DNA of 64,000 nucleotides from Escherichia coli (GTDB lineage: Bacteria; Pseudomonadota; Gammaproteobacteria; Enterobacterales; Enterobacteriaceae): NCBI RefSeq assembly GCF_003018255.1, contig NZ_CP027440.1; one strand, given 5' to 3'. This document shows, piece after piece, positions 30,241 to 47,066 of this stretch. A program made the position numbers and the translations under genes. Under the pieces are notes generated by a model. That model saw nothing but the letters and a program-made list of their open reading frames with translations. It was not told the origin of the DNA and ran no database searches. Positions within the stretch are counted from its first letter, which is position 1; every line of letters starts with the position of its first letter.

Positions 30241-33200
30241 ATGAGCGGAAAACCGGCGGCGCGTCAGGGCGACATGACGCAGTATGGCGGTAGCATTGTC
30301 CAGGGTTCTGCCGGGGTACGTATTGGTGCCCCCACCGGTGTGGCCTGTTCGGTGTGCCCCGGCGGGGTGACGTCCGGTCATCCGGTCAATCCGCTGCTCG
30401 GTGCGAAGGTCCTTCCCGGCGAAACCGACCTTGCCCTGCCCGGCCCGCTGCCGTTCATTCTCTCCCGCACCTACAGCAGTTACCGGACAAAAACGCCCGC
30501 GCCGGTGGGGAGCCTCGGCCCCGGCTGGAAAATGCCTGCGGATATCCGCTTACAGCTGCGCGATAACACACTGATACTCAGTGATAACGGCGGCAGAAGC
30601 CTGTATTTTGAGCACCTGTTTCCCGGTGAGGACGGTTACAGCCGCAGCGAGTCACTCTGGCTGGTGCGCGGCGGCGTGGCGAAACTGGATGAAGGTCACC
30701 GGCTGGCCGCACTCTGGCAGGCGCTGCCGGAAGAGCTTCGCCTGAGTCCGCATCGTTATCTGGCGACGAACAGTCCGCAGGGGCCGTGGTGGGTATTCGG
30801 CTGGTGTGAGCGGGTGCCGGAGGCGGATGAGGTGCTGCCTGCGCCGCTGCCGCCGTACCGGATACTGACCGGGCTGGTGGACCGCTTCGGGCGCACACAG
30901 ACGTTTCACCGTGAGGCTGGCGGCGAATTCAGCGGCGAAATCACCGGCGTGACCGACGGCGCAGGCCGTCACTTCCGGCTGGTACTGACCACGCAGGCGC
31001 TGCGGGCAGAAGAGGCCCGGCAGAAGGCCACTTCCGGCGGGACGGAACCGTCCGCTTTTCCTGATACCCAGCCGGACTACACGGAATATGGCCGGGACAA
31101 CGGTATCCGTCTGTCTGCCGTGTGGCTGACGCACGACCCGGAATACCCGGAGAATTTACCTGCCGCGCCGCTGGTACGCTATGGCTGGACGCCGCGCGGC
31201 GAACTGGCGGCGGTGTATGACCGCAGCAATACACAGGTGCGCAGCTTTACTTACGATGATAAATACCGGGGCCGGATGGTGGCGCACCGTCACACGGGCC
31301 GGCCGGAAATCCGTTACCGTTACGACAGTGACGGGCGGGTGACAGAACAGCTAAACCCGGCAGGCTTAAGCTACACGTATCAGTATGAGAAAGACCACAT
31401 CACCATCACCGACAGCCTGGACCGCCGTGAAGTGCTGCACACGCAGGGCGAAGGCGGGCTGAAGCGGGTGGTGAAAAAGGAACACGCGGACGGCAGCGTC
31501 ACGCAGAGTCAGTTTGACGCGGTGGGCAGGCTTAAGGCACAGACGGATGCCGCAGGCCGGACGACTGAGTACAGCCCGGATGTGGTGACCGGACTCATCA
31601 CGCGCATCACCACGCCGGATGGCAGGGCATCGGCGTTTTACTATAACCACCACAGCCAGTTAACGTCAGCCACCGGGACTGACGGGCTGGAGTTGCGCAG
31701 GGAATATGATGAATCCAGCCGTCTGATTCAGGAAACTGCCCCTGACGGCGATATCACCCGCTACCGTTATGATAATCCACACAGTGACTTACCCTGCGCA
31801 ACGGACGATGCCACCGGCAGCCGGAAAACCATGACATGGAGCCGTTACGGTCAGTTGCTGACCGTCACTGACTGTTCCGGTTATGTAACCCGTTATGACC
31901 ATGACCGTTTTGGTCAGATGACGGCGGCGCACCGCGAGGAAGGGCTGAGTCAGTATCGCGCATACGACAGCCGTGGACAGTTAATTGCGGTGAAAGACAT
32001 GCAGGGCCATGAAACGCGGTATGAATACAACGCCGCCGGTGACCTGACCGCCGTCATTGCCCCGGACGGCAGCAGAAACGGGACACAGTACGATACGTGG
32101 GGAAAGGCCATCCGTACCACGCAGGGTGGTCTGACGCGCAGTATGGAATACGATGCTGCCGGACGGGTCATCCGCCTGACCAGTGAAAACGGCAGCCACA
32201 CCACCTTCCGTTACGATGTACTCGACCGGCTGATACAGGAAACCGGTTTTGACGGCCGCACACAGCGTTATCATCACGACCTGACCGGTAAACTTATCCG
32301 CAGCGAGGATGAGGGGCTGGTCACCCACTGGCACTATGACGAAGCAGACCGCATCACGCACCGCACCGTGAAGGGTGAAACCGCAGAACAGTGGCGGTAC
32401 GACGAACGCGGCTGGCTGACAGGCATCAGCCATCTCAGCGAAGGGCACCGGGTGACGGTGCATTACAGGTATGATGAGAAAGGCCGCCTGACCGGTGAGC
32501 GCCAGACGGTGCATCACCCGCAGACGGAAGCACTGCTCTGGCAGCATGAGACCAGACATGCGTACAACGCGCAGGGGCTGGCGAACCGCTGTATACCGGA
32601 CAGCCTGCCCGCCGTGGAATGGCTGACTTACGGCAGCGGCTGGCTGGCAGGCATGAAACTCGGCGACACACCGCTGGTGGATTTCACCCGTGACCGCCTG
32701 CACCGGGAAACGCTGCGCAGCTTCGGCCGTTATGAACTCACCACCGCTTATACCTCTGCCGGGCAGTTACAGAGCCAGCACCTGAACAGCCTGCAGTATG
32801 ACCGCGATTACACCTGGAACGACAACGGCGAACTCATCCGCATCAGCAGCCCGCGACAGACCCGGAGTTACAGCTACAGCGACTCCGGCAGGCTGACCGG
32901 CGTCCACACCACCACCTCAAATCTGGATATCCGCATCCCGTATGCCACGGACCCGGCAGGTAACCGCCTGCCCGACCCGGAGCTGCACCCGGACAGCACC
33001 CTCAGCATGTGGCCGGATAACCGTATCGCCCGTGACGCGCACTATCTTTACCGGTATGACCGTCACGGCAGGCTGACAGAGAAAACCGACCTCATCCCGG
33101 AAGGGGTTATCCGCACGGATGATGAGCGGACTCACCGGTACCATTACGACAGCCGGCACCGGCTGGTGCACTACACGCGGACACAATATGCAGAGCCGCT

Positions 33201-34158
33201 GGTCGAAAGTCGCTATCTTTACGACCCGCTGGGCCGCAGGGTGGCAAAACGGGTATGGCGGCGTGAACGGGACCTGACGGGCTGGATGTCGCTGTCACGG
33301 AAACCGGAAGTGACCTGGTACGGCTGGGACGGCGACCGGCTGACCACGATACAGAACGACAGAACCCGCATCCAGACGGTTTATCAGCCGGGGAGCTTCA
33401 CGCCACTCATCAGGGTCGAAACCGCCACCGGAGAGCTGGCGAAAACGCAGCGCCGCAGCCTGGCGGATGCCCTTCAGCAGTCCGGCGGCGAAGACGGTGG
33501 CAGTGTGGTGTTCCCGCCGGTGCTGGTGCAGATGCTCGACCGGCTGGAAAGTGAAATCCTGGCTGACCGGGTGAGTGAGGAAAGCCGCCGCTGGCTGGCA
33601 TCGTGCGGCCTGACGGTGGAGCAGATACAAAACCAGATGGACCCGGTGTACACGCCGGCGCGAAAAATCCACCTGTACCACTGCGACCATCGCGGCCTGC
33701 CGCTGGCGCTTGTCAGCACGGAAGGGGCAACAGAATGGTGCGCAGAATACGATGAATGGGGCAACCTGCTGAATGAAGAGAACCCGCACCAGCTGCAGCA
33801 GCTCATCCGCCTGCCGGGTCAGCAGTATGATGAGGAGTCCGGCCTCTATTACAACCGCCACCGCTATTATGACCCGCTGCAGGGGCGGTATATCACTCAG
33901 GATCCGATTGGGCTTAAGGGGGGATGGAATTTTTATCAGTATCCGTTGAATCCGATCACTAATATAGATCCTTTAGGATTAGAAACACTAAAATGCATTA
34001 AGCCACTGCATTCAATGGGCGGAACTGGTGAAAGAAGCGGTCCAGATATATGGGGGAATCCGTTCTATCATCAATATCTTTGTGTCCCAGATGGTAAAGG
34101 GGACTATACTTGTGGTGGCCAAGACCAACGGGGAGAATCAAAAGGAGATGGTCTATAG
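30241..34158 (+). CDS. rhsB: Rhs family protein (RhsB-locus): N-terminal region, YD-repeat core ending at PxxxxDPxGL, C-terminal toxin domain truncated by an in-frame TAG
   Basis: 1305 codons; many YD repeats (RYRYD, RYDH, YEYN, TFRYD ...); core-end motif [11 protein letters not shown] near 33945-33977; GC-rich core and AT-rich C-terminus; located between nikR and yhhJ. Confidence 0.88.
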
Positions 34159-35275: not shown

Positions 35276-36570
35276 CAGGGAAAGATCATCAGAAGTACAC
35301 TTTTTGTACTAAGTAATTCGCATTTTATGTTTAAAAATCGAGATATTCCTCATTACCTGAAGCTGTTTTTTATTGCGTATACATGATCAAATACTCCTTA
35401 CATAATTAAGGAGAACAAAATGGAACTTAAAAAATTGATGGAACATATTTCTATTATCCCCGATTACAGACAAGCCTGGAAAGTGGAACATAAATTGTCG
35501 GATATTCTACTGTTGACTATTTGTGCCGTTATTTCTGGTGCAGAAGGCTGGGAAGATATAGAGGATTTTGGGGAAACACATCTCGATTTTTTAAAACAAT
35601 ATGGTGATTTTGAAAATGGTATTCCTGTTCACGATACCATCGCCAGAGTTGTATCCTGTATCAGTCCTTCAAAATTTCACGAGTGCTTTATTAACTGGAT
35701 GCGAGATTGCCATACTTCAGATGATAAAGACGTCATCGCAATTGATGGAAAAACACTCCGGCATTCTTATGGCAAGAGTCGCCGCAGGGGAGCGATTCAT
35801 GTCATTAGTGCGTTCTCAACAATGCACAGTCTGGTCATCGGACAGATCAGGACGGATGAGAAATCCAATGAGATTACAGCTATCCCTGAACTTCTTAACA
35901 TGCTGGATATTAAAGGAAAAATAATCACAACTGATGCAATGGGTTGCCAGAAAGATATTGCAGAGAAGATACAAAAACAGGGCGGTGATTATTTATTCGC
36001 TGTAAAAGGAAATCAGGGGCGGCTAAATAAAGCCTTTGAGGAAAAATTCCCACTGAAAGAATTAAATAATCCAGAGCATGACAGTTACGCAATTAGTGAA
36101 AAGAGTCACGGCAGAGAAGAAATCCGTCTTCACATTGTTTGCGATGTCCCTGATGAACTTATTGATTTCACGTTTGAATGGAAAGGTCTGAAGAAATTAT
36201 GCGTGGCAGTCTCCTTTCGGTCAATAATAGCAGAACAAAAGAAAGAGCCAGAAATGACGGTCAGATATTATATCAGTTCTGCTGATTTAACCGCAGAGAA
36301 GTTCGCCATAGCAATCCGAAACCACTGGCACGTGGAGAATAAGCTGCACTGGCGTCTGGACGTGGTAATGAATGAAGACGACTGCAAAATAAGAAGAGGA
36401 AATGCAGCAGAATTATTTTCAGGGATACGGCACATTGCTATTAATATTTTGACGAATGATAAGGTATTCAAGGCAGGGTTAAGACGTAAGATGCGAAAAG
36501 CAGCCATGGACAGAAACTATCTCGCGTCAGTCCTTGCGGGGAGCGGGCTTTCGTAATCTTGCCCTGATCA
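35268..36570 (+). mobile_element. H-repeat (H-rpt) element, ISAs1 family
   Basis: Contains the 378-aa transposase ORF; both flanks are repeated in the second copy downstream. Confidence 0.75.
35420..36556 (+). CDS. yhhI: H-repeat-associated ISAs1-family transposase (YhhI-like)
   Basis: 378 aa, [32 protein letters not shown] ..., DDE transposase-like. Confidence 0.85.
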
Positions 36571-36611
36571 GACCACCGTTGATCACCATATCCATGAGTT
36601 TATGAATAAAG

Positions 36612-37192
36612 GGCAGGGAAAGATCACGCAACGCTGCTTTTTTGTACTAAATAATTCGCACTAAATATTCAATAATTGAGATATTCCTTATTACCTAAAG
36701 CTGTTTTCCATTGCTTATACATGATCAAATACTCCTTACATAATTAAGGAGAACAAAATGGAACTTAAAAAATTGATGGAACATATTTCTATTATCCCCG
36801 ATTACAGACAAGCCTGGAAAGTGGAGCATAAATTGTCAGATATTCTACTGTTGACTATTTGTGCCGTTATTTCTGGTGCAGAAGGTTGGGAAGATATAGA
36901 GGATTTTGGGGAAACTCATCTCGATTTTTTGAAGCAATATGGTGATTTTGAAAATGGTATTCCTGTTCACGATACCATTGCCAGAGTTGTATCCTGTATC
37001 AGTCCTGAAAAATTTCACGAGTGCTTTATTAACTGGATGCGTGACTGCCATTCTTCAGATGATAAAGACGTCATTGTAATTGATGGAAAAACGCTCCGGC
37101 ACTCTTATGACAAGAGTCGCCGCAGGGGAGCGATTCATGTCATTTCTCGCGTCAGTCCTTGCGGGGAGCGGGCTTTCGTAATCTTGCCCTGA
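36612..37192 (+). mobile_element. Second, internally deleted H-repeat copy
   Basis: Same 5' flank and first ~130 codons as the first copy (36758-37141), then joined directly to the element's 3' terminus ([11 protein letters not shown] coding end). Confidence 0.75.
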
Positions 37193-37345: not shown

Positions 37346-38473
37346 TTACGCCATTGTCCCAATTGTCTTCCTGAATCTCAACAGTGCGATGGTGAAAAAC
37401 GCGCCGCCAATTGCCATCAGTGTCAGGAACTGCGGCCAGACGATTTCGAATCCGGCACCACGGTAGAGAATGGCCTGCGCGAGGCTAACAAAGTGTGTCG
37501 TCGGCATGGTCAGCATAATGTCCTGCACCATCTGCGGCATACTTTCGCGCGGCGTGGAACCACCGGAAAGCATTTGCAGCGGCAGCAGCACCAGAATCAC
37601 CAGCAGCCCCAGTTGCGGCATTGAACGCGCTATCGTCCCCATAAAAATACCGATTGACGTGGTGGCAAACAGACTGAGCGCCACGCCCAGCATAAACAGC
37701 GGGATCGAGCCTTCTATCGGTACGCCCAGCACGCCTTTTACCATCAGCACCAGCGATAATCCCGACACCACCAGCACCACCAGCCCCATCGACCAGACCT
37801 TTGCCATCATGATCTCAAACGGCGTTATCGGCATCACCAGTAAGTGTTCCACCGTGCCGTGTTCACGCTCGCGGATCAGCGCCGATCCGGTCAATACAAT
37901 CGCCAGCATGGTAATGTTGTTGATGATCGCCATCACCCCGCCAAACCACGCGGGATCAAGGTTCGGGTTAAAGCGCATCCGTGTTTCCAGCGATACCAAC
38001 GGTTCGCTGTTATCACGGTAGCGCGCGACAAAGCTGTTCACTTCACCGTTGATAATATTCTGGATATACCCATTGCCGGTAAATGCCTGGCTCATGCGCG
38101 TGGCATCGACGTTCACCTGAATATCCGGCTGGCGTCCGGCGAGGACATCACGCTGAAAATTAGGCGGAATATTTATCGCGAAGGTATAACGTCCGGCGTC
38201 CAGCCCGGCATCCATCTCATCGGCGGTGATCATCTCCGGTGGCAAAAACCACGGGCGATAGAAGCTGTTAACGATCCGGTTCGATAACTGCGATTGATCC
38301 ATATCGGCAATGGCGATCGGCGCGAGGTTCAACGATCCTGGCGTAACGGTCGCTGACGAATACACCGACACCGTAAACGAGAAGACAATCAGCGTCAGCA
38401 TCGCTTTATCACCGAGCAGACTGCGCAACTCTTTGATACCCAGATTAAAAATATTACGTAAATGGCGCATCAT
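37346..38473 (-). CDS. yhhJ: ABC-2 type transporter permease YhhJ
   Basis: Start at MMRHLRNIF; ATG overlaps the rbbA stop (ATGA); multi-TM, 375 aa. Confidence 0.85.
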
Positions 38474-41205
38474 CCCTCCTGTTTTTTCAGCAGCAGGATG
38501 CTTAAGCCCATCACCAGCGGTATGGCTATCAGCAACGGGATAAAAAGTTGCCACAAATCAGTCAGATCCAGCGCTTTCGAGAACGTTCCGCGGGCGATAG
38601 TCAGAAAATGACTGGTCGGGTAAACCTCGCCGATCCAACGTCCTGGACCTTCCAGCGAAGCTACCGGATCGATCATCCCGGAAAACTGTGTCGCCGGGAT
38701 CAACGTGATAATTGCCGTACCAAAAATGGCGGCAATCTGGCTTTTCATAAAGGTGGAGATCAGCAGCCCCATTCCGGTGGCGATGATGATATACAGCAGC
38801 GCCGCCAGGGTGAGAGTCAGGAAACTGCCTTTATGCGGTACGCCAAATACAAATACCGACAGGGCGCAGAGCAGGAAAAAGTTCAGCATCCCCAGCGCGA
38901 TGTATGGCAGCTGTTTGCCAAGCAAAAATTCGCTACGGGTGGTGGGGGTCACGTAAAGGTTGATAATCGACCCTAGCTCTTTTTCCCGCACCACGCTAAG
39001 GGCGCTTAGCATTGACGGGATCATCATCAGCAGAAGCGGGATCACCGCCGGAACAATCGCCGGCAGGCTTTTTACGTCCGGGTTATAGCGATAGCGCGTC
39101 TCAATATTCATCAGCCCGCTTTGGCTGGCGGGTGTGGACTGTCGGCTCGCCACATCCTGTAGCCAGCTCTGGTGCATGGCCTGCACGTAGCCTTTTACCG
39201 TTTCGGCGCGGCTCGGCATCGCACCGTCGATCCAGACACCGAGTTCCACGGGCGTACCACGCGCGATATCGCGCCCGAAATTAGGAGGGATCTCAATTGC
39301 CACCGTGATATCGCCCGCACGCATCCGACGATCAAGCTCGTCATAACTGGTGAGCGGCGGCTGTTCGATAAAGTAACGGGAACCGGAGAGATTGAGCGTC
39401 CACGCCTGGCTACTGACGGTTTGATCGCGGTCAAGCACCGCAAAGCGCAGGTTTTCCACATCCATACTGATGCCGTAACCCATTATCAGCATCAGGATCA
39501 CCGTTCCCATCAGCGCCAGCGTCGAACGTACCGGATCGCGTCGCAGTTCCAGCGCTTCGCGGCGGCTGTAGCTAAACAGACGGCGCAGGCTAAATCCCTG
39601 ACGCGCCGCGTGGGTGGTGTCGTGTATCACGGGCGGCGCTTCGGCTTCGTTGCTCTGCCCTGCCGCTTCCTGCAAACAGGCGATAAATGCCTCTTCCAGA
39701 CTTGCGGCTCCGCGTTTCTCAACCAGTTCCTGCGGTGTCCCGCTGGCGAGCACTTTTCCGGCGTGCATCAGTGAGATACGGTCGCAACGTTCCGCTTCGT
39801 TCATAAAGTGGGTGGAGATGAAGATAGTCACTTTGTCCTGGCGCGAGAGATCGACCATCAACTGCCAGAACATATCCCTCGCCACCGGATCGACGCCAGA
39901 AGTAGGCTCATCGAGGATTAACATCTCCGGGCGATGAATCACCGCCACCGCCAGCGAAAGCCGCTGGCGAATGCCGAGCGGCAATGACTCCGGCAGAACA
40001 TCTTCAACGTCGTTGAGCTTAAAACGCTCGCTCATTTCAGCCACTCGCGCGGGAATTTCCGCTTCCGGGATGTGAAACAAACGGGCATGTAACTCAAGGT
40101 TTTGCCGCACGGTGAGTTCGTTATAGAGCGAAAACGCCTGCGACATATAGCCTACCCGACGGCGGGTATCGATATCTTTTGGATCAACCGGTTGCCCAAA
40201 CAGCCACGCCTCACCTTCGCTGGCGGGCAGCAGTCCGGTGAGCATTTTCATGGTGGTGGATTTACCGCAGCCGTTCGAACCGAGGAATCCAAAAATCTCC
40301 CCGCGTGGAATGCGGAAATTGACGTGATCAACGGCAACGAAGGAACCAAAACGCATGGTCAGATCGCGCGCTTCGATGGCAATCTCTGCGTTTTCAGGGT
40401 GATACGGTGGGATCACTACCGCCTGATGCGCCTGGCGTTGCGCTTGCGGTAACAGATTTATAAATGCTTCTTCCAGCGTGGCGCTTTGCGTTTGCTGCCG
40501 CAGCTCTTCGGCGCTGCCGGTTGCCAGCACTTCTCCGGCATTCATCGCTACCAGCCAGTCGAAGCGTTCGGCCTCTTCCATGTAGGCGGTGGCGACCAGC
40601 ACGCTCATATTGCTCTGCCGCTGGCGAATGCTGTCGATCAAATCCCAGAACTGGGCGCGGGAGAGCGGGTCAACCCCCGTTGTTGGCTCATCAAGAATCA
40701 ACAGTTCCGGGTCGTGGATTAACGCACAGCACAGCCCAAGTTTTTGCTTCATCCCGCCGGAGAGTTTCCCTGCCGGACGATCACGAAACGGTGCTAACCC
40801 GGTGCTGGTCAGCAGCTCATTGATTCGCACTTCCCGCTCCGCTTTGTCGTGACCGAACAGGCGAGCGAAAAAATCGACGTTTTCATACACCGACAAGGTG
40901 TGGTAGAGGTTTTTGCCCAGCCCCTGCGGCATCCAGGCGATGCGCGGGCAAACGTCGCGGCGATGCTTCGGGTCGCGCATATCGCCGCCCAGCACCATCA
41001 CGCTGCCCTGCTCAATGACGCGGGCACCGGAAATCAACGACAACAAGCTCGATTTACCGACACCATCCGGTCCAATCAGCCCGACCATGCAACGGGCCGG
41101 AATATCGAGTGTGATATTGTTCAGCGCAACGGTTTTTCCATAATGCTGGCTCACGCCCGCCAGTTGCGCGACAGGCGGGACGGGAACCAGTTCCAGATGC
41201 GTCAT
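38470..41205 (-). CDS. rbbA: Ribosome-associated ATPase RbbA (fused tandem ABC ATPase plus permease domain)
   Basis: 911 aa; two Walker A motifs ([18 protein letters not shown]) and a C-terminal membrane domain. Confidence 0.9.
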
Positions 41206-42269
41206 TGCGGCAACCTCACCACCAGGTCGTCAGGCCACGGAAGTTCTTCATTCACCCGCACCCACGCTACGCCCGGCAATCCGGTTTTGACATATTCCAG
41301 ATGCTGCTGGAGTAATTCCGGTGGGATACGCGCTTTGACACGGAACATCAATTTCAGCCGCTCATCGCTGGTTTCGACGGTTTTTGGCGTGAACTGGGCG
41401 ACGCTGGCGACAAAACTGATGGTCGCGGGAATACGCAGATCTGGTGCAGCATCAAGAATCAAACGTGCTTCACCGCCCAGTTTCAGCGTGCCCGCCTGTT
41501 CGGTTGGCAGAAAGAAGGTCATATAGACGTCGCTGAGATCGACCATATTCAGCACCCGACCGCCTGCCGCCAGCACTTCGCCTGGCTCGGCAACCCGATA
41601 CTGCACGCGTCCGTCACGCGGGGCTTTCAGTTCGCTGTCATCGATATCTGCGGCAATGCGCCGTTCAGTGGCTTGTGCCGCTTCGACGCGAGTTTGCGCC
41701 TGAATGATATTGGTGCGTGCCGCCTCTATAGCGGCTTTAGAAGCAGAAACCTGAGCTTTTGCCGATTCCAGCGCAGCTCGGGCGCTCTCAGCGGCGGCGC
41801 GGTCGTCATCCAACTGTTGCGCAGAAATTGCCCCCCGTTGTGCCAGTGAGCGGGAACGCGTATGACGTTTTGCTACGGAGTCCAGTTCTGCCTGGCGTTG
41901 ATTAACCAGCGACTGTGCGGCACGAGTTTCGCTTTGGCGTTGCTCCAGCAAAGCCTGCGCGGCGGCAACGGCACTTTGTGCTTCTTTGATTTGCGCGATG
42001 GCTTCCAGTCGCTGTTCCTGCAACACGCGAGTATCCATCTTCGCCAGCACTTCACCTTCTCGAACAAACTGGCCTTCTTTCACCAGAATGGTGTCGATAC
42101 GCCCGGCAATTTTGCTGGCGATATCCACTTCCGTCGCTTCAATGCGCCCATTGCTGACAGCAAAGCCTTCCGGCACACCCGCCGGGCGCAACAGCCACCA
42201 CGCCACGACGGCAGCCACCGCCAGTGCCCCGACAACCCACCACGCCAGATGGCGCTTACTCTTATCCAT
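41202..42269 (-). CDS. yhiI: HlyD-family membrane fusion protein YhiI
   Basis: 355 aa, N-terminal TM segment, coiled-coil region, 4-bp overlap with rbbA. Confidence 0.85.
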
Positions 42270-43002
42270 AATCGATCCGCCATAATCCCTGTAAGCAATC
42301 GACGCGTGTTACAACTGCCACCGAACGATGTTCAGCGGATTCTTCCATCCGGGATAAGAAGGAAATGGCAAATACGACCAGCGCACAGAGCATTGAGCGC
42401 CAATGGGGAAGGCTTAGTGAAAACGGGTAGTAATGTTGTCATCATCAGCATTCCTGGCCGTAAATGAAACACGCATACTCATAAGTGAAATCAATTAAAT
42501 ACTAACAGTTATATTCATGTTGTCTATTTGATTGCCATCAACTTGTGATACATCGCGATGTTCTTCCGTTCGCTGGTGTTTTTTCCAAAAATATTCTGTA
42601 CAGGTTCACAGATTCTGTTGCACAGGTTTCCGTAACAGGGAAACCTGATGACTATCACATAGCGTTATTATCGCCTGATGTGCGAATAAATACCGAATAT
42701 AAAATAATTTATTCTGAAAAGATGATAGATGATAAAGGCTCGTGGGTTTAATAAAATATTCCCTAAAAGACTCATTTAAAACAACAAAATAAGATAAAGA
42801 TATTAATTCAGAGTTTATCTTAGGATAAATATTTATTTAATAGCATTAACTCACAGCTAAAAGTTGATCCCCATAACGCTAAATCCGATTATAGTGAAGT
42901 TACTTTTTTTAATTGATGGCATCTTATAGACATATTTAACTAACTGAAAAGACGAATCATATGTTTTTCGAAGTGTAGCAGAAAATATATATGGGGTTTA
43001 AA

Positions 43003-44055
43003 ATGAATATATATATCGGATGGTTGTTTAAATTAATTCCTTTACTGATGGGTATAATATGCATCGCATTAGGTGAGTTTGTATTAACCGGTTCTGGGCA
43101 AAGTGAATATTTCGTTGCAGGGCATGTTCTGATTTCTCTTTCTGCGATATGTCTGGCATTGTTCACTACCGCATTTATTATTATATCTCAGTTAACTCAC
43201 GGCATGAATAAATTCTACAACAGGTTATTTCCCGTTATTGGTTATGCCGGTTCTGCTACAACTATGATTTGGGGATGGTCACTGTTGGCAAGCAATAATG
43301 TGATGGCAGATGAATTTGTCGCCGGTCATGTTATTTTCGGCGTTGGCATGATTGCCGCTTGTGTATCAACCGTAGCGGCATCTTCCGGACATTTTCTGTT
43401 GATCCCCAAAAACGCCTCGGGCAGTAAGAGTGACGGTACGCCATTGCAGGCCTATTCTTCAACAATCGGTAATTGCTTAATTGCCGTTCCCGTTCTGCTT
43501 ACTCTCTTTGGTTTCATTTGGTCAGTCATACTGTTACGTAGTGCAGATATCACACCACATTATGTTGCAGGTCACGTACTAATGGGGTTAACGGCAATTT
43601 GCGCTTGTCTTATTGGCCTTGTCGCCACTATTGTCCATCAAACGCGGAATACGTTCTCAGTGAAAGAACATTGGCTGTGGTGCTATTGGGTTATTTTGCT
43701 TGGCTCACTTACCATTATTTTTGGTATCTACGTATTAATCAGTTCAGATGCAAGCGCCCGCCTGGCCCCCGGCATTATTCTCATTTGCCTGGGGATGATC
43801 TGCTACAGTATTTTCTCCAAAGTGTGGTTGTTAGCGCTGGTATGGCGACGCACCTGTTCGTTAGCCAACAGAATACCCATGATTCCGGTATTTACCTGTC
43901 TGTTTTGTCTGTTCCTTGCTGCGTTCCTGGCTGAAATTGCGCAAACCGATATGGCTTACTTTATTCCTTCGCGAGTTCTGGTTGGCTTAGGTGCAGTTTG
44001 TTTTACACTGTTTTCCATCGTTTCTATATTAGAAGCGGGTTCAGCGAAAAAATAA
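43003..44055 (+). CDS. yhiM: Inner membrane protein YhiM
   Basis: Start at MNIYIGWLFKLIPLLMG, about 350 aa, multi-TM (an alternative start is at 42991). Confidence 0.75.
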   Translation: MNIYIGWLFKLIPLLMGIICIALGEFVLTGSGQSEYFVAGHVLISLSAICLALFTTAFIIISQLTHGMNKFYNRLFPVIGYAGSATTMIWGWSLLASNNVMADEFVAGHVIFGVGMIAACVSTVAASSGHFLLIPKNASGSKSDGTPLQAYSSTIGNCLIAVPVLLTLFGFIWSVILLRSADITPHYVAGHVLMGLTAICACLIGLVATIVHQTRNTFSVKEHWLWCYWVILLGSLTIIFGIYVLISSDASARLAPGIILICLGMICYSIFSKVWLLALVWRRTCSLANRIPMIPVFTCLFCLFLAAFLAEIAQTDMAYFIPSRVLVGLGAVCFTLFSIVSILEAGSAKK

Positions 44056-44065
44056 TAAAAAAGGC

Positions 44066-44097
44066 TTCAGATAAGGCGTTGGACGCCTTATCTGGTT
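44066..44097. terminator. Palindromic hairpin between convergent yhiM and yhiN (REP-like, bidirectional terminator)
   Basis: cagataaggcgttggacgccttatctgg perfect inverted repeat. Confidence 0.5.
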
Positions 44098-44141
44098 TTA
44101 TTCAGGTTAATCCCTCTGGTATCGAGAGCACATTTTGCTTC

Positions 44142-45335
44142 TTATTCTGCCACCAAATCCTGCGCACAAGCCCATGCACTCGACCACGCCCACTGGAAGT
44201 TATAGCCCCCCAGCCAGCCGGTGACGTCCATCACTTCGCCGATGAAGTACAGCCCAGGCACTTTGCGCGCTTCCATCGTCCGTGAAGAGAGTTCGTTGGT
44301 GTCCACGCCGCCGAGCGTCACTTCGGCAGTGCGATAGCCTTCAGTGCCGTTGGGTTGTACGCGCCAGTCGGTCAATGTGCTAATCAGTGCCTGTTGGTCA
44401 CGCACGTTGAGCTGTTTTAGCGAAACATCCGGGATTTGCCCGAGTTGTTGTAAACGTTCAACCAACCGCTTCGGTAGATGAACCGCCAGTGTGTTTTTCA
44501 GGCTCTGATTCGGATGTGCATTACGCTGCTCATTCAGGAAGGTTTCGAGGTCCACATCCGGTAGCAGATTGATACTGACAAATTCACCCGGTTGCCAGTA
44601 GCTGGAAATTTGCAACACCGCCGGTCCAGATAAGCCGCGGTGGGTGAAGAGTAAGTTCTCACGGAAAACGATGCCGTTTTCAGCGGTAATCACGGAAGGC
44701 ACCGCCACGCCCGCCAGCACCTGTAACTCTTCGAGCAACGGTTTATGCAGAGTGAATGGCACCAGGCCCGCGCGGGTCGGCAGCACGTTGAGGCCAAATT
44801 GTTCGGCAATCTTATAACCAAACGGCGACGCGCCCAGCCCTGGCATTGACAGTCCACCGGTCGCGATGACCAGCTTTTCGCAACCGGCAGTCATGCCGTT
44901 CAGTTCAAGCGTGAAGCCTGTTTCATCCTTCGCCACACTCAGCACTTCGCTACGCAATCTGAAGGTCACATTGCCCTTCTCGCACTCATCCACCAGCATG
45001 TCGACAATCTGCTGCGCGGAGTCATCGCAGAAGAGTTGCCCTAACGTTTTCTCGTGCCAGGTGATGCCGTGTTTATTGACCAGATCAATGAAATCCCACT
45101 GGGTAAAACGCGCGAGTGCAGACTTACAAAAATGCGGATTCTGGCTCAGATAAGCGCCCGGTTCGACATAAAGGTTGGTAAAGTTGCAGCGCCCACCGCC
45201 AGACATGAGGATTTTGCGCCCTGGTTTTTTACCATTATCGATCAGCAGAACCCGGCGTCCTGCCTGACCTGCCAGCGCAGAACAGAACATACCCGCCGCA
45301 CCAGCGCCTATAATAATGGCATCAAACCTTTCCAC
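44142..45335 (-). CDS. yhiN: FAD-dependent flavoprotein YhiN
   Basis: 397 aa; N-terminal GAGAAG dinucleotide-binding motif. Confidence 0.85.
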   Translation of the reverse strand: MERFDAIIIGAGAAGMFCSALAGQAGRRVLLIDNGKKPGRKILMSGGGRCNFTNLYVEPGAYLSQNPHFCKSALARFTQWDFIDLVNKHGITWHEKTLGQLFCDDSAQQIVDMLVDECEKGNVTFRLRSEVLSVAKDETGFTLELNGMTAGCEKLVIATGGLSMPGLGASPFGYKIAEQFGLNVLPTRAGLVPFTLHKPLLEELQVLAGVAVPSVITAENGIVFRENLLFTHRGLSGPAVLQISSYWQPGEFVSINLLPDVDLETFLNEQRNAHPNQSLKNTLAVHLPKRLVERLQQLGQIPDVSLKQLNVRDQQALISTLTDWRVQPNGTEGYRTAEVTLGGVDTNELSSRTMEARKVPGLYFIGEVMDVTGWLGGYNFQWAWSSAWACAQDLVAE

Positions 45336-45566: not shown

Positions 45567-47066
45567 ATGCTACATTTGTTTGCTGGCCTGGATTTGCATA
45601 CCGGGCTGTTATTATTGCTTGCACTGGCTTTTGTGCTGTTCTACGAAGCCATCAATGGTTTCCATGACACAGCCAACGCCGTGGCAACCGTTATCTATAC
45701 CCGCGCGATGCGTTCTCAGCTCGCCGTGGTTATGGCGGCGGTGTTCAACTTTTTGGGTGTTTTGCTGGGTGGTCTGAGTGTTGCCTATGCCATTGTGCAT
45801 ATGCTGCCGACGGATCTGCTGCTTAATATGGGATCGTCTCATGGCCTTGCCATGGTGTTCTCTATGTTGCTGGCGGCGATTATCTGGAACCTGGGTACCT
45901 GGTACTTTGGTTTACCTGCATCCAGCTCTCATACGCTGATTGGCGCGATCATCGGGATTGGTTTAACCAATGCGTTGATGACCGGGACGTCAGTGGTGGA
46001 TGCACTCAATATCCCGAAAGTATTAAGTATTTTCGGTTCTCTGATCGTTTCCCCTATTGTCGGCCTGGTGTTTGCTGGCGGTCTGATTTTCTTGCTGCGT
46101 CGCTACTGGAGCGGCACCAAGAAACGCGCCCGTATCCACCTGACCCCAGCGGAGCGTGAAAAGAAAGACGGCAAGAAAAAGCCGCCGTTCTGGACGCGTA
46201 TTGCGCTGATCCTTTCCGCTATCGGCGTGGCGTTTTCGCATGGCGCGAACGATGGTCAGAAAGGCATTGGTCTGGTTATGTTGGTATTGATTGGTGTCGC
46301 ACCAGCAGGCTTCGTGGTGAACATGAATGCCACTGGCTACGAAATCACCCGTACCCGTGATGCCATCAACAACGTCGAAGCTTACTTTGAGCAGCATCCT
46401 GCGCTGCTGAAACAAGCGACCGGTGCTGATCAGTTAGTACCGGCTCCGGAAGCTGGCGCAACGCAACCTGCGGAGTTCCATTGCCATCCGTCGAATACCA
46501 TTAACGCGCTCAACCGCCTGAAAGGCATGTTGACTACCGATGTGGAAAGCTACGATAAGCTGTCGCTTGATCAACGTAGCCAGATGCGCCGCATTATGCT
46601 GTGCGTTTCTGACACTATCGACAAAGTGGTGAAGATGCCTGGCGTGAGTGCTGACGATCAGCGCCTGTTGAAGAAACTGAAGTCTGACATGCTTAGCACC
46701 ATCGAGTATGCACCGGTGTGGATCATCATGGCGGTCGCGCTGGCGTTAGGTATCGGTACGATGATTGGCTGGCGTCGTGTGGCAACGACTATCGGTGAGA
46801 AAATCGGTAAGAAAGGCATGACCTACGCTCAGGGAATGTCTGCCCAGATGACGGCGGCAGTGTCTATCGGCCTGGCAAGTTATACCGGGATGCCGGTTTC
46901 CACTACTCACGTACTCTCCTCTTCTGTCGCGGGGACGATGGTGGTAGATGGCGGCGGCTTACAGCGTAAAACCGTAACCAGTATTCTGATGGCCTGGGTG
47001 TTTACCCTTCCGGCTGCGGTACTGCTTTCCGGCGGGCTGTACTGGCTCTCCTTGCAGTTCCTGTAA
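45567..47066 (+). CDS. pitA: Low-affinity inorganic phosphate transporter PitA
   Basis: 499 aa, multi-[10 protein letters not shown] motif. Confidence 0.93.

Follow-up and report, generated by a model that had tools for sequence, protein, structure and literature searches.

Between yhiI and yhiM, Escherichia coli K-12 carries several kilobases of DNA that are missing from the strain studied here, and the question raised by this locus is whether the short interval is what remains of a longer one, or whether it is the older arrangement. In the window (the whole stretch of DNA that was analysed, 64,000 nucleotides of E. coli contig NZ_CP027440.1) the genes run, left to right, yhhJ, rbbA, yhiI, the spacer, yhiM, yhiN and pitA. 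A preliminary description of this DNA put the yhiI-yhiM gap at about 720 bp, which agrees with the 733 bp that we measured, and stated that K-12 has several hypothetical genes or pseudogenes here, naming yhiJ, yhiK and yhiL. This was borne out in the K-12-type chromosome NZ_CP062239 (our locus L002), in which 4,238 bp lie between yhiI and yhiM (L002 7171-11408), containing yhiY, yhiJ (1,623 bp, 540 aa) and a frameshifted pseudogene of the YhiJ/YhiL family (yhiK/L). We propose, at a probability of about 0.82, that positions 42270-43002 of the window are an ancestral, genus-wide divergent intergenic control region, which separates a yhiY-yhiI-rbbA-yhhJ operon from yhiM. The anatomy, conservation, breakpoints, outgroup states and allele divergences given below (coordinates in Table 1) were obtained directly in the present analysis; transcription starts, Rho dependence and regulator binding come from the K-12 and CFT073 literature and are carried over by homology.

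Table 1. Features at and around the yhiI-yhiM spacer (window coordinates; L002 is NZ_CP062239).
Feature	Position	Strand	Basis or remark
rbbA	38470-41205	minus	NCBIfam RbbA equivalog, 1,597 bits
yhiI	41202-42269	minus	HlyD-type adaptor
yhiI-yhiM spacer	42270-43002		733 bp
Intercistronic leader, yhiY stop to yhiI start, 62 nt	42270-42331	minus	Read from sequence; 97% identical to K-12
yhiY, 37-aa small ORF MMTTLLPVFTKPSPLALNALCAGRICHFLLIPDGRIR	42332-42445	minus	RefSeq annotation in a 99.9%-identical genome
Highly conserved block: yhiY N-terminal codons, 5'UTR and promoter	42417-42538		116/122 columns invariant
Predicted 5'UTR of the yhiY-yhiI transcript (~47 nt)	42446-42492	minus	Inferred by homology; predicted start ~42492
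Predicted sigma-70-type promoter	42499-42526	minus	Consensus scan
Divergent tract, short vs K-12 haplotype	42488-44146		Corresponds to L002 7389-12789 (5.4 kb); non-homologous or ~80% identical
AT-rich yhiM upstream regulatory region	42590-43002	plus	Collinear with the K-12 yhiL-yhiM intergenic region
yhiM	43003-44055	plus	DUF2776 inner-membrane protein; Pfam PF10951, 519 bits; RefSeq start 43003
Short yhiM-yhiN intergenic, 86 bp	44056-44141		Hairpin CAGATAAGGCG...CGCCTTATCTG
yhiN	44142-45335	minus	
pitA	45567-47066	plus	

The spacer as a whole has a G+C content of 0.357 (36%), against 0.52 for the window, but the AT-richness ascribed to it in the preliminary description applies only to its larger, right-hand part (~42500-43000, 0.27-0.31); the left ~230 bp (42270-42499) have ~50-57% G+C in two 300-bp windows that include the yhiI 5' end. 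The left 40%, of ordinary G+C, holds the 37-codon upstream ORF (uORF) yhiY and a 62-nt leader, with a predicted sigma-70 promoter (42526-42499) and a predicted 5'UTR of ~47 nt. These would serve a leftward unit, yhiY-yhiI-rbbA-yhhJ, in which a small upstream ORF precedes the genes for an HlyD-type adaptor and an ABC exporter; the AT-rich right 60% would be the regulated promoter region for rightward yhiM.

The statement that the spacer has no convincing ORF did not survive, as yhiY lies within it, is annotated in RefSeq and matches Pfam PF23514 over its full 37 residues (96.2 bits against a cutoff of 27, E = 9e-28); its frame is kept in three of four outgroups, being intact in E. albertii, E. 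whittamii and strain E69 and frameshifted in Escherichia sp. E1V33. The 68-codon ORF that had been pointed out at 42545-42751 (plus strand) is present, with a GTG start, but the homologous frame contains stops in all four outgroups; it gave zero Pfam or NCBIfam matches and is absent from the RefSeq annotation; it is spurious and not a gene. An Rfam scan of 41800-44400 at a permissive E-value returned no match, a terminator scan of the region found none, and searches of the spacer for repeats, tandem repeats and tRNAs gave neither a mobile-element scar nor an att site.

Compared with K-12, the window is 97-98% identical up to 42487, then has either no homology or an identity of ~78-80%, and is 98.5% identical again from 44147, with sharp breakpoints at 42487/42488 and 44146/44147. 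The two intervals are alike in their flanking genes, in yhiY, in their first 218 bp (97% identical), in the promoter element TAGACA-N16-TA[C/G]TAT and in a collinear yhiM promoter region (78%). K-12 is 3.5 kb longer here, the surplus consisting of yhiJ, yhiK/L and 107 bp that lengthen the 5'UTR. Its yhiM is an 80%-identical allele with a GTG start and without the upstream ATG, its yhiM-yhiN spacer is an unrelated sequence of 314 bp, and its yhiN ends in a different C-terminus. We found no direct repeats flanking K-12 yhiJ-yhiL. Whereas yhiI and rbbA show normal relationships between window and K-12 (96-97%), yhiM is only 80.2% identical in nucleotides (91% in amino acids), and its dS is 1.36 against 0.16 for neighbouring yhiI. 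With a dN/dS of 0.03-0.05, both yhiM alleles are under purifying selection.

The YhiJ/YhiL proteins themselves (DUF4049; L002 7536-11026) contain GDxxGDR...GNHE motifs and match the calcineurin-like Metallophos family below its threshold (E = 0.0065). Their named relatives, all from Escherichia or Shigella, include ~34%-identical E. coli paralogues and a 57%-identical E. albertii homologue. PADLOC returned no defence-system match for YhiJ or YhiM, and the matches of YhiJ to plasmids were mislabelled chromosomes only.

Within E. coli the locus exists in two stable states, apart from infrequent IS1 events. Among 5,426 complete genomes, 5,413 gave a match, and 5,410 of these are either short (1,122-1,127 genomes, ~21%) or long, with the K-12 yhiJ-yhiL segment (4,288 genomes, ~79%, in 4,161 of which at least 80% of the segment is covered). 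The short forms are at least 99% identical in 1,121 of 1,140 matching genomes, and their carriers include UTI89, Nissle 1917, ATCC 25922 and JJ1887, which we take to be phylogroup B2, and APEC O78:H4, presumably phylogroup G. The rare secondary events include an IS1 insertion (H79) and an IS1A-associated deletion (E423), and do not amount to repeated turnover of the site. The idea of a variable insertion/deletion hotspot is thus right in that the site is polymorphic (1,122 short and 4,288 long), but two states account for nearly every genome, and the marks of a mobile-element or integrase-type insertion hotspot are missing: there is no tRNA at the site and there are no direct repeats around K-12 yhiJ-yhiL. 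Across the genus, one further cargo occurs here, a PTS cluster in Escherichia sp. MOD1-EC7003. The short-form sequence has already been annotated publicly, being present at 99% identity or more in over a thousand genomes, and any comparison of K-12 with UPEC shows whether yhiJ/yhiL are there; to this extent the finding is an ordinary one.

What gives the polymorphism its direction is the state of the locus outside E. coli. A contig scan with two exact peptide patterns returned six loci, E. fergusonii not among them. In this thin outgroup sample the short interval is found in E. albertii, E. whittamii, E1V33 and E69 alike (four of four, 670-733 bp). The same short interval is thus found in relatives outside E. 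coli and not in K-12. The four outgroup spacers align with the window end to end, at a mean column identity of 86%; their promoter/5'UTR block is near-invariant and their yhiM alleles are of the window type. In E69 and E. whittamii the spacer is missing ~39 bp from its middle and ~19 bp further right. The window-type yhiM-yhiN region is also common to E. whittamii and MOD1-EC7003. Short-type yhiM alleles are 88-92% identical to one another in nucleotides, and K-12 yhiM is ~80% identical to every one of them, with a dS of 1.4-2.0 to every other species. This makes K-12 yhiM the phylogenetic outlier, and points to the window yhiM being the ancestral Escherichia allele. A tblastn search of the spacer for remnants of YhiJ/YhiL, the homology that a loss might have left behind, gave only noise (best E = 0.13), and, with the outgroup states and the K-12 yhiM outlier, it speaks against the deletion that the preliminary description had implied for this strain.

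A true deletion at this locus can be seen in E423 (NZ_CM173464; L009 6139-7096), in which yhiI and yhiM also lie close together without yhiJ/yhiL. Here IS1A is found at the junction in place of yhiJ-yhiL, yhiY is truncated or re-annotated, and YhiM is identical to that of K-12 (WP_001028905.1), which the window YhiM is not; in E423 it was the long haplotype that recently suffered a secondary deletion, which sets it apart from the window. The rbbA gene of E423 has an internal stop. Taken together, the outgroup states, the missing remnant, the breakpoints, the allele divergence and the unlikeness to E423 argue that the short form is ancestral and the long haplotype derived.

The K-12-type long haplotype could then have arisen when a block of ~5.4 kb replaced 1.66 kb of ancestral sequence by homologous recombination, with crossovers just upstream of yhiY and inside the yhiN 3' end. 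Such a block would have lengthened the leader by 107 bp, introduced yhiJ and yhiL, and exchanged the yhiM promoter for a diverged one and yhiM itself for an allele saturated in dS; the yhiM-yhiN spacer and the 3' end of yhiN would have been exchanged with them. Most simply, the long haplotype looks like an import from a deeply diverged, unsampled relative. A protein search for the donor found nothing for YhiM between ~79% and 61% identity (at most 61% outside Escherichia), and the named homologues of YhiJ (DUF4049) were all from Escherichia or Shigella; because no donor was found, import and an ancient polymorphism within the genus are not separable. At this locus the reference state, that of K-12, is the derived one, and DNA that is "missing relative to K-12" is not to be taken for DNA that was deleted.

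That the haplotypes do recombine is shown by MOD1-EC7003 (L006 1-9053), with which at least three arrangements exist at genus level. Its yhiM is a recombinant, K-12-type in nt 1-750 and window-type in nt 751-1050. Upstream of it, a cluster encoding a GntR regulator, PTS EIIA and EIIC, an FGGY kinase and a class-II aldolase, together with a 51-residue YhiJ C-terminal remnant, stands in place of rbbA-yhiI. Some Escherichia lineages are rearranged to the right of yhiM as well: the 8 kb that follow yhiM in E1V33 (L004 8964-16960) and E69 (L005 9054-17050) yielded neither yhiN nor pitA, and this stretch of E1V33 has few long ORFs.

Other histories have to be set against the ancestry of the short form. 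On numbers within the species alone, one might suppose that the lineage of the window once had yhiJ-yhiK/L like K-12 and then lost them, since these genes are present in K-12 and in 79% of the complete E. coli genomes, and losses of yhiJ-yhiL do occur, as in E423 with its IS1A junction. We consider such a deletion scar very improbable: all four non-coli lineages are short, neither a protein nor a DNA remnant is present, the absence fits the two genes almost exactly with flanks collinear with both sides of the K-12 interval, no IS or repeat scar is seen, and a loss would further require that the neighbouring yhiM allele had been exchanged. It is also hard to make the long form ancestral for E. 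coli by having the short haplotype imported into a B2-like lineage from another Escherichia species. The window yhiM does resemble the alleles of those species (88-92% nt), but its dS to them (0.32-0.52) matches that of vertically inherited yhiI (0.21-0.39), which points to no special donor, and the K-12 allele, at a dS of 1.4-2.0 to every species, would stay unexplained; the chance of this being correct seems to us very small.

Selection could instead have kept both haplotypes since before the species split, as an ancient, balanced trans-species polymorphism in which niche-dependent selection acts on yhiM, yhiJ and yhiL, with no recent import. That the alleles diverge very deeply (dS 1.36) while each is under strong purifying selection would suit this, as would the near-restriction of YhiM and DUF4049 proteins to Escherichia, which leaves no outside donor evident, and the K-12-type first 750 nt of yhiM in MOD1-EC7003, a genome that is not K-12. 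The two alleles also have different published phenotypes, copper in UPEC (PMC11005409) and acid/GABA in K-12 (PMC6604978). Yet the four sampled non-coli lineages carry the short type only, and MOD1-EC7003 is close to E. coli in its flanks (pitA dS 0.085), a recombinant mosaic rather than an independent old lineage. Each haplotype is, moreover, tightly clustered within E. coli (the short one at least 99% identical in 1,121 of 1,140), and the named carriers of the short form, presumably B2 or related, suggest a split along the phylogeny and not free segregation. We therefore regard long-term balancing as improbable. A further suggestion, unlikely but worth stating, is that the two yhiI-yhiN haplotypes form an old, selectively maintained dimorphism, with the short one kept in lineages rich in extraintestinal pathogens and the long one introgressed, so that a block swap, and not point variation, would explain strain-dependent YhiM phenotypes (copper/Cpx in UPEC, acid/GABA in K-12). 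If this were true, the long form would bring the two DUF4049 genes yhiJ/yhiL with their metallophosphatase-like motifs, a deeply diverged yhiM with its promoter and a yhiY leader ~104 nt longer, and the swap might retune uORF/Rho control of the rbbA exporter operon.

Under the reading that we prefer, of the spacer as an ancestral divergent control region, its right-hand part would regulate yhiM. Positions 42590-43002 are 78% identical to the K-12 yhiL-yhiM intergenic region over aligned columns, with an alignment score of 212 against 136 +/- 9 for shuffles. In K-12 the yhiM transcription start and its -10 and -35 elements have been mapped by primer extension, and the gene is repressed by H-NS and activated by GadE, GadX and RpoS (PMC6604978). 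The homologous elements in the window are a -35 CTGAAA at 42944-42949 and a -10 TTCGAA at 42967-42972, the latter a poor match to consensus, with an inferred start at an A at ~42980. In the UPEC strain CFT073, the -400..0 region of the yhiM promoter is bound by CpxR in EMSA, and CueR represses yhiM (PMC11005409). Over this upstream region the window is matched at 99.3-99.4% identity by UTI89 and Nissle 1917.

One element within it is the 20-mer TTAGGATAAATATTTATTTA at 42820-42839, which occurs once in the window and is conserved genus-wide and in K-12. The GadE-binding GAD box is a 20-bp TTAGGATTTTGTTATTTAAA-like element upstream of GadE-activated genes. Set against this consensus, TTAGGATAAATATTTATTTA has both half-motifs with 2 nt more between them, and it lies ~150 nt upstream of the inferred yhiM start. 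No high-affinity H-NS site resembling TCGATAAATT with up to one mismatch was found in the spacer; its AT-rich right part has a G+C of 0.27-0.31 against 0.52, and the repression of yhiM by H-NS is known from K-12 only (PMC6604978).

The start codon of yhiM itself bears on the published differences between strains. Two in-frame ATGs are present, at 42991 and 43003, and gene callers are split between them (354 aa and 350 aa). For a start at 43003, GGGG at 42993-42996 would be the Shine-Dalgarno sequence; the ATG at 42991, which would move the start 12 bp upstream, is conserved in the other short-form species and missing in K-12, which has GAGGAGTTTAAAGTG there. An "MXXXM motif" has been described in UPEC YhiM and not in K-12 (PMC11005409), and this fits MGFKM read from ATG 42991, a four-residue extension encoded within the spacer. 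Published YhiM phenotypes differ too, concerning copper in UPEC (PMC11005409) and acid and GABA in K-12 (PMC6604978). The functional difference between UPEC and K-12 YhiM, which has been ascribed to "minor variation in a core gene" (PMC11005409), sits on a pair of alleles saturated in dS and with different promoters.

Elsewhere in the window, the segment 35271-37192 contains a transposase ORF of the ISAs1-like/ISEc1 type (yhhI, H-repeat), which is intact (35420-36556), and after it a second, truncated H-repeat copy (36608-37144) with a 144-aa ORF (36758-37192), whereas in K-12 there is one copy only. Positions 36520-36567 and 37145-37192 are identical and form a direct repeat of 48 bp, and a 1,305-aa ORF (30241-34158) lies upstream of the transposase.

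On the left side of the spacer, strong conservation runs from the N-terminal codons of yhiY into the DNA upstream. In an alignment of the window with E1V33, E69, E. whittamii and E. albertii, the invariance of block 42417-42538 has a binomial P of ~1e-12 against the 69% seen at yhiI/rbbA third codon positions in the same genomes. In the non-coding portion, 42446-42538, 87 of the 93 columns show no variation (93.5%, binomial P ~1e-8), and 42419-42478 is 100% invariant in the five Escherichia lineages. Such constraint marks the block upstream of yhiY as, in all probability, functional regulatory DNA. It includes the predicted promoter, TAGACA (42526-42521) and TAGTAT (42504-42499) with a 16-nt spacer and a TG extension, matching the consensus at 9 of 12 positions. 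The count of promoter-like sites in the region does not exceed that in shuffles, and support for this one comes from its conservation and from a K-12 5' end at the homologous place. K-12 retains TAGACA-N16-TACTAT directly upstream of the cloned 5' end, the forward yhiI cloning primer of Adams et al. beginning at L002 7497, 7 nt past that element; together with the homologous hexamers of the window, this predicts a start at ~42492 and a 5'UTR of ~47 nt. Left of yhiJ the two haplotypes share a single island of homology, 42491-42527 (37 bp, 84%), which spans the promoter, and K-12 has 107 extra nt in the yhiY leader/5'UTR.

The small gene yhiY is directly upstream of yhiI on the same strand, 62 nt ahead of the yhiI start at 42269, and is likely to be the upstream ORF of the yhiI-rbbA-yhhJ operon. 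It was identified by ribosome profiling with stalled initiation complexes, which placed its start at the second of three AUGs (bioRxiv 10.1101/511675); in the window this is the AUG at 42445. The ORF and an AGGA Shine-Dalgarno sequence (42455-42452) are present and conserved here, the evidence for translation being from K-12. K-12 Term-seq 3' ends have been reported at -43 and -65 of yhiI, and the one at -43 is marked as Rho-dependent and carries a uORF flag (bioRxiv 10.1101/2020.07.18.207399, supplementary file 3); by homology these ends correspond to ~42312 and ~42334 of the window. Adams et al. also found a yhiI fusion to be up more than 2-fold in a rho R66S mutant, and list yhiY-yhiI as a candidate among uORF-associated 3' ends (bioRxiv 10.1101/2020.07.18.207399). 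Rho-dependent premature termination within the 62-nt leader, a K-12 result, may thus be carried over to the window by homology.

RNA structure found no support as the cause of the leader conservation, as the minimum free energy gave z = -0.6 and there were 0 compensatory changes among 66 predicted pairs. In the minus-strand RNA, the 5'UTR segment AUGCGUGUU (42466-42474) is complementary to AACACGCGU (42298-42306), between the yhiY stop and the yhiI start. Pairing of the two would bracket the yhiY uORF; all positions are invariant, with no covariation, and the fold is no better than that of shuffles.

A known parallel for this arrangement is the mdtU-mdtJI type of uORF/Rho leader (bioRxiv 10.1101/2020.07.18.207399). 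In yhiY-yhiI the likeness rests on K-12, and the 5'UTR of the short haplotype is ~104 nt shorter than that of K-12, which sets the two apart. As one of the better-conserved non-coding blocks of the region, the DNA upstream of yhiY would be a reasonable target for uORF/Rho control of the RbbA exporter operon. As in mdtU-mdtJI, a validated small ORF lies directly upstream of a transporter operon, and the K-12 3' ends fall just downstream of the yhiY uORF.
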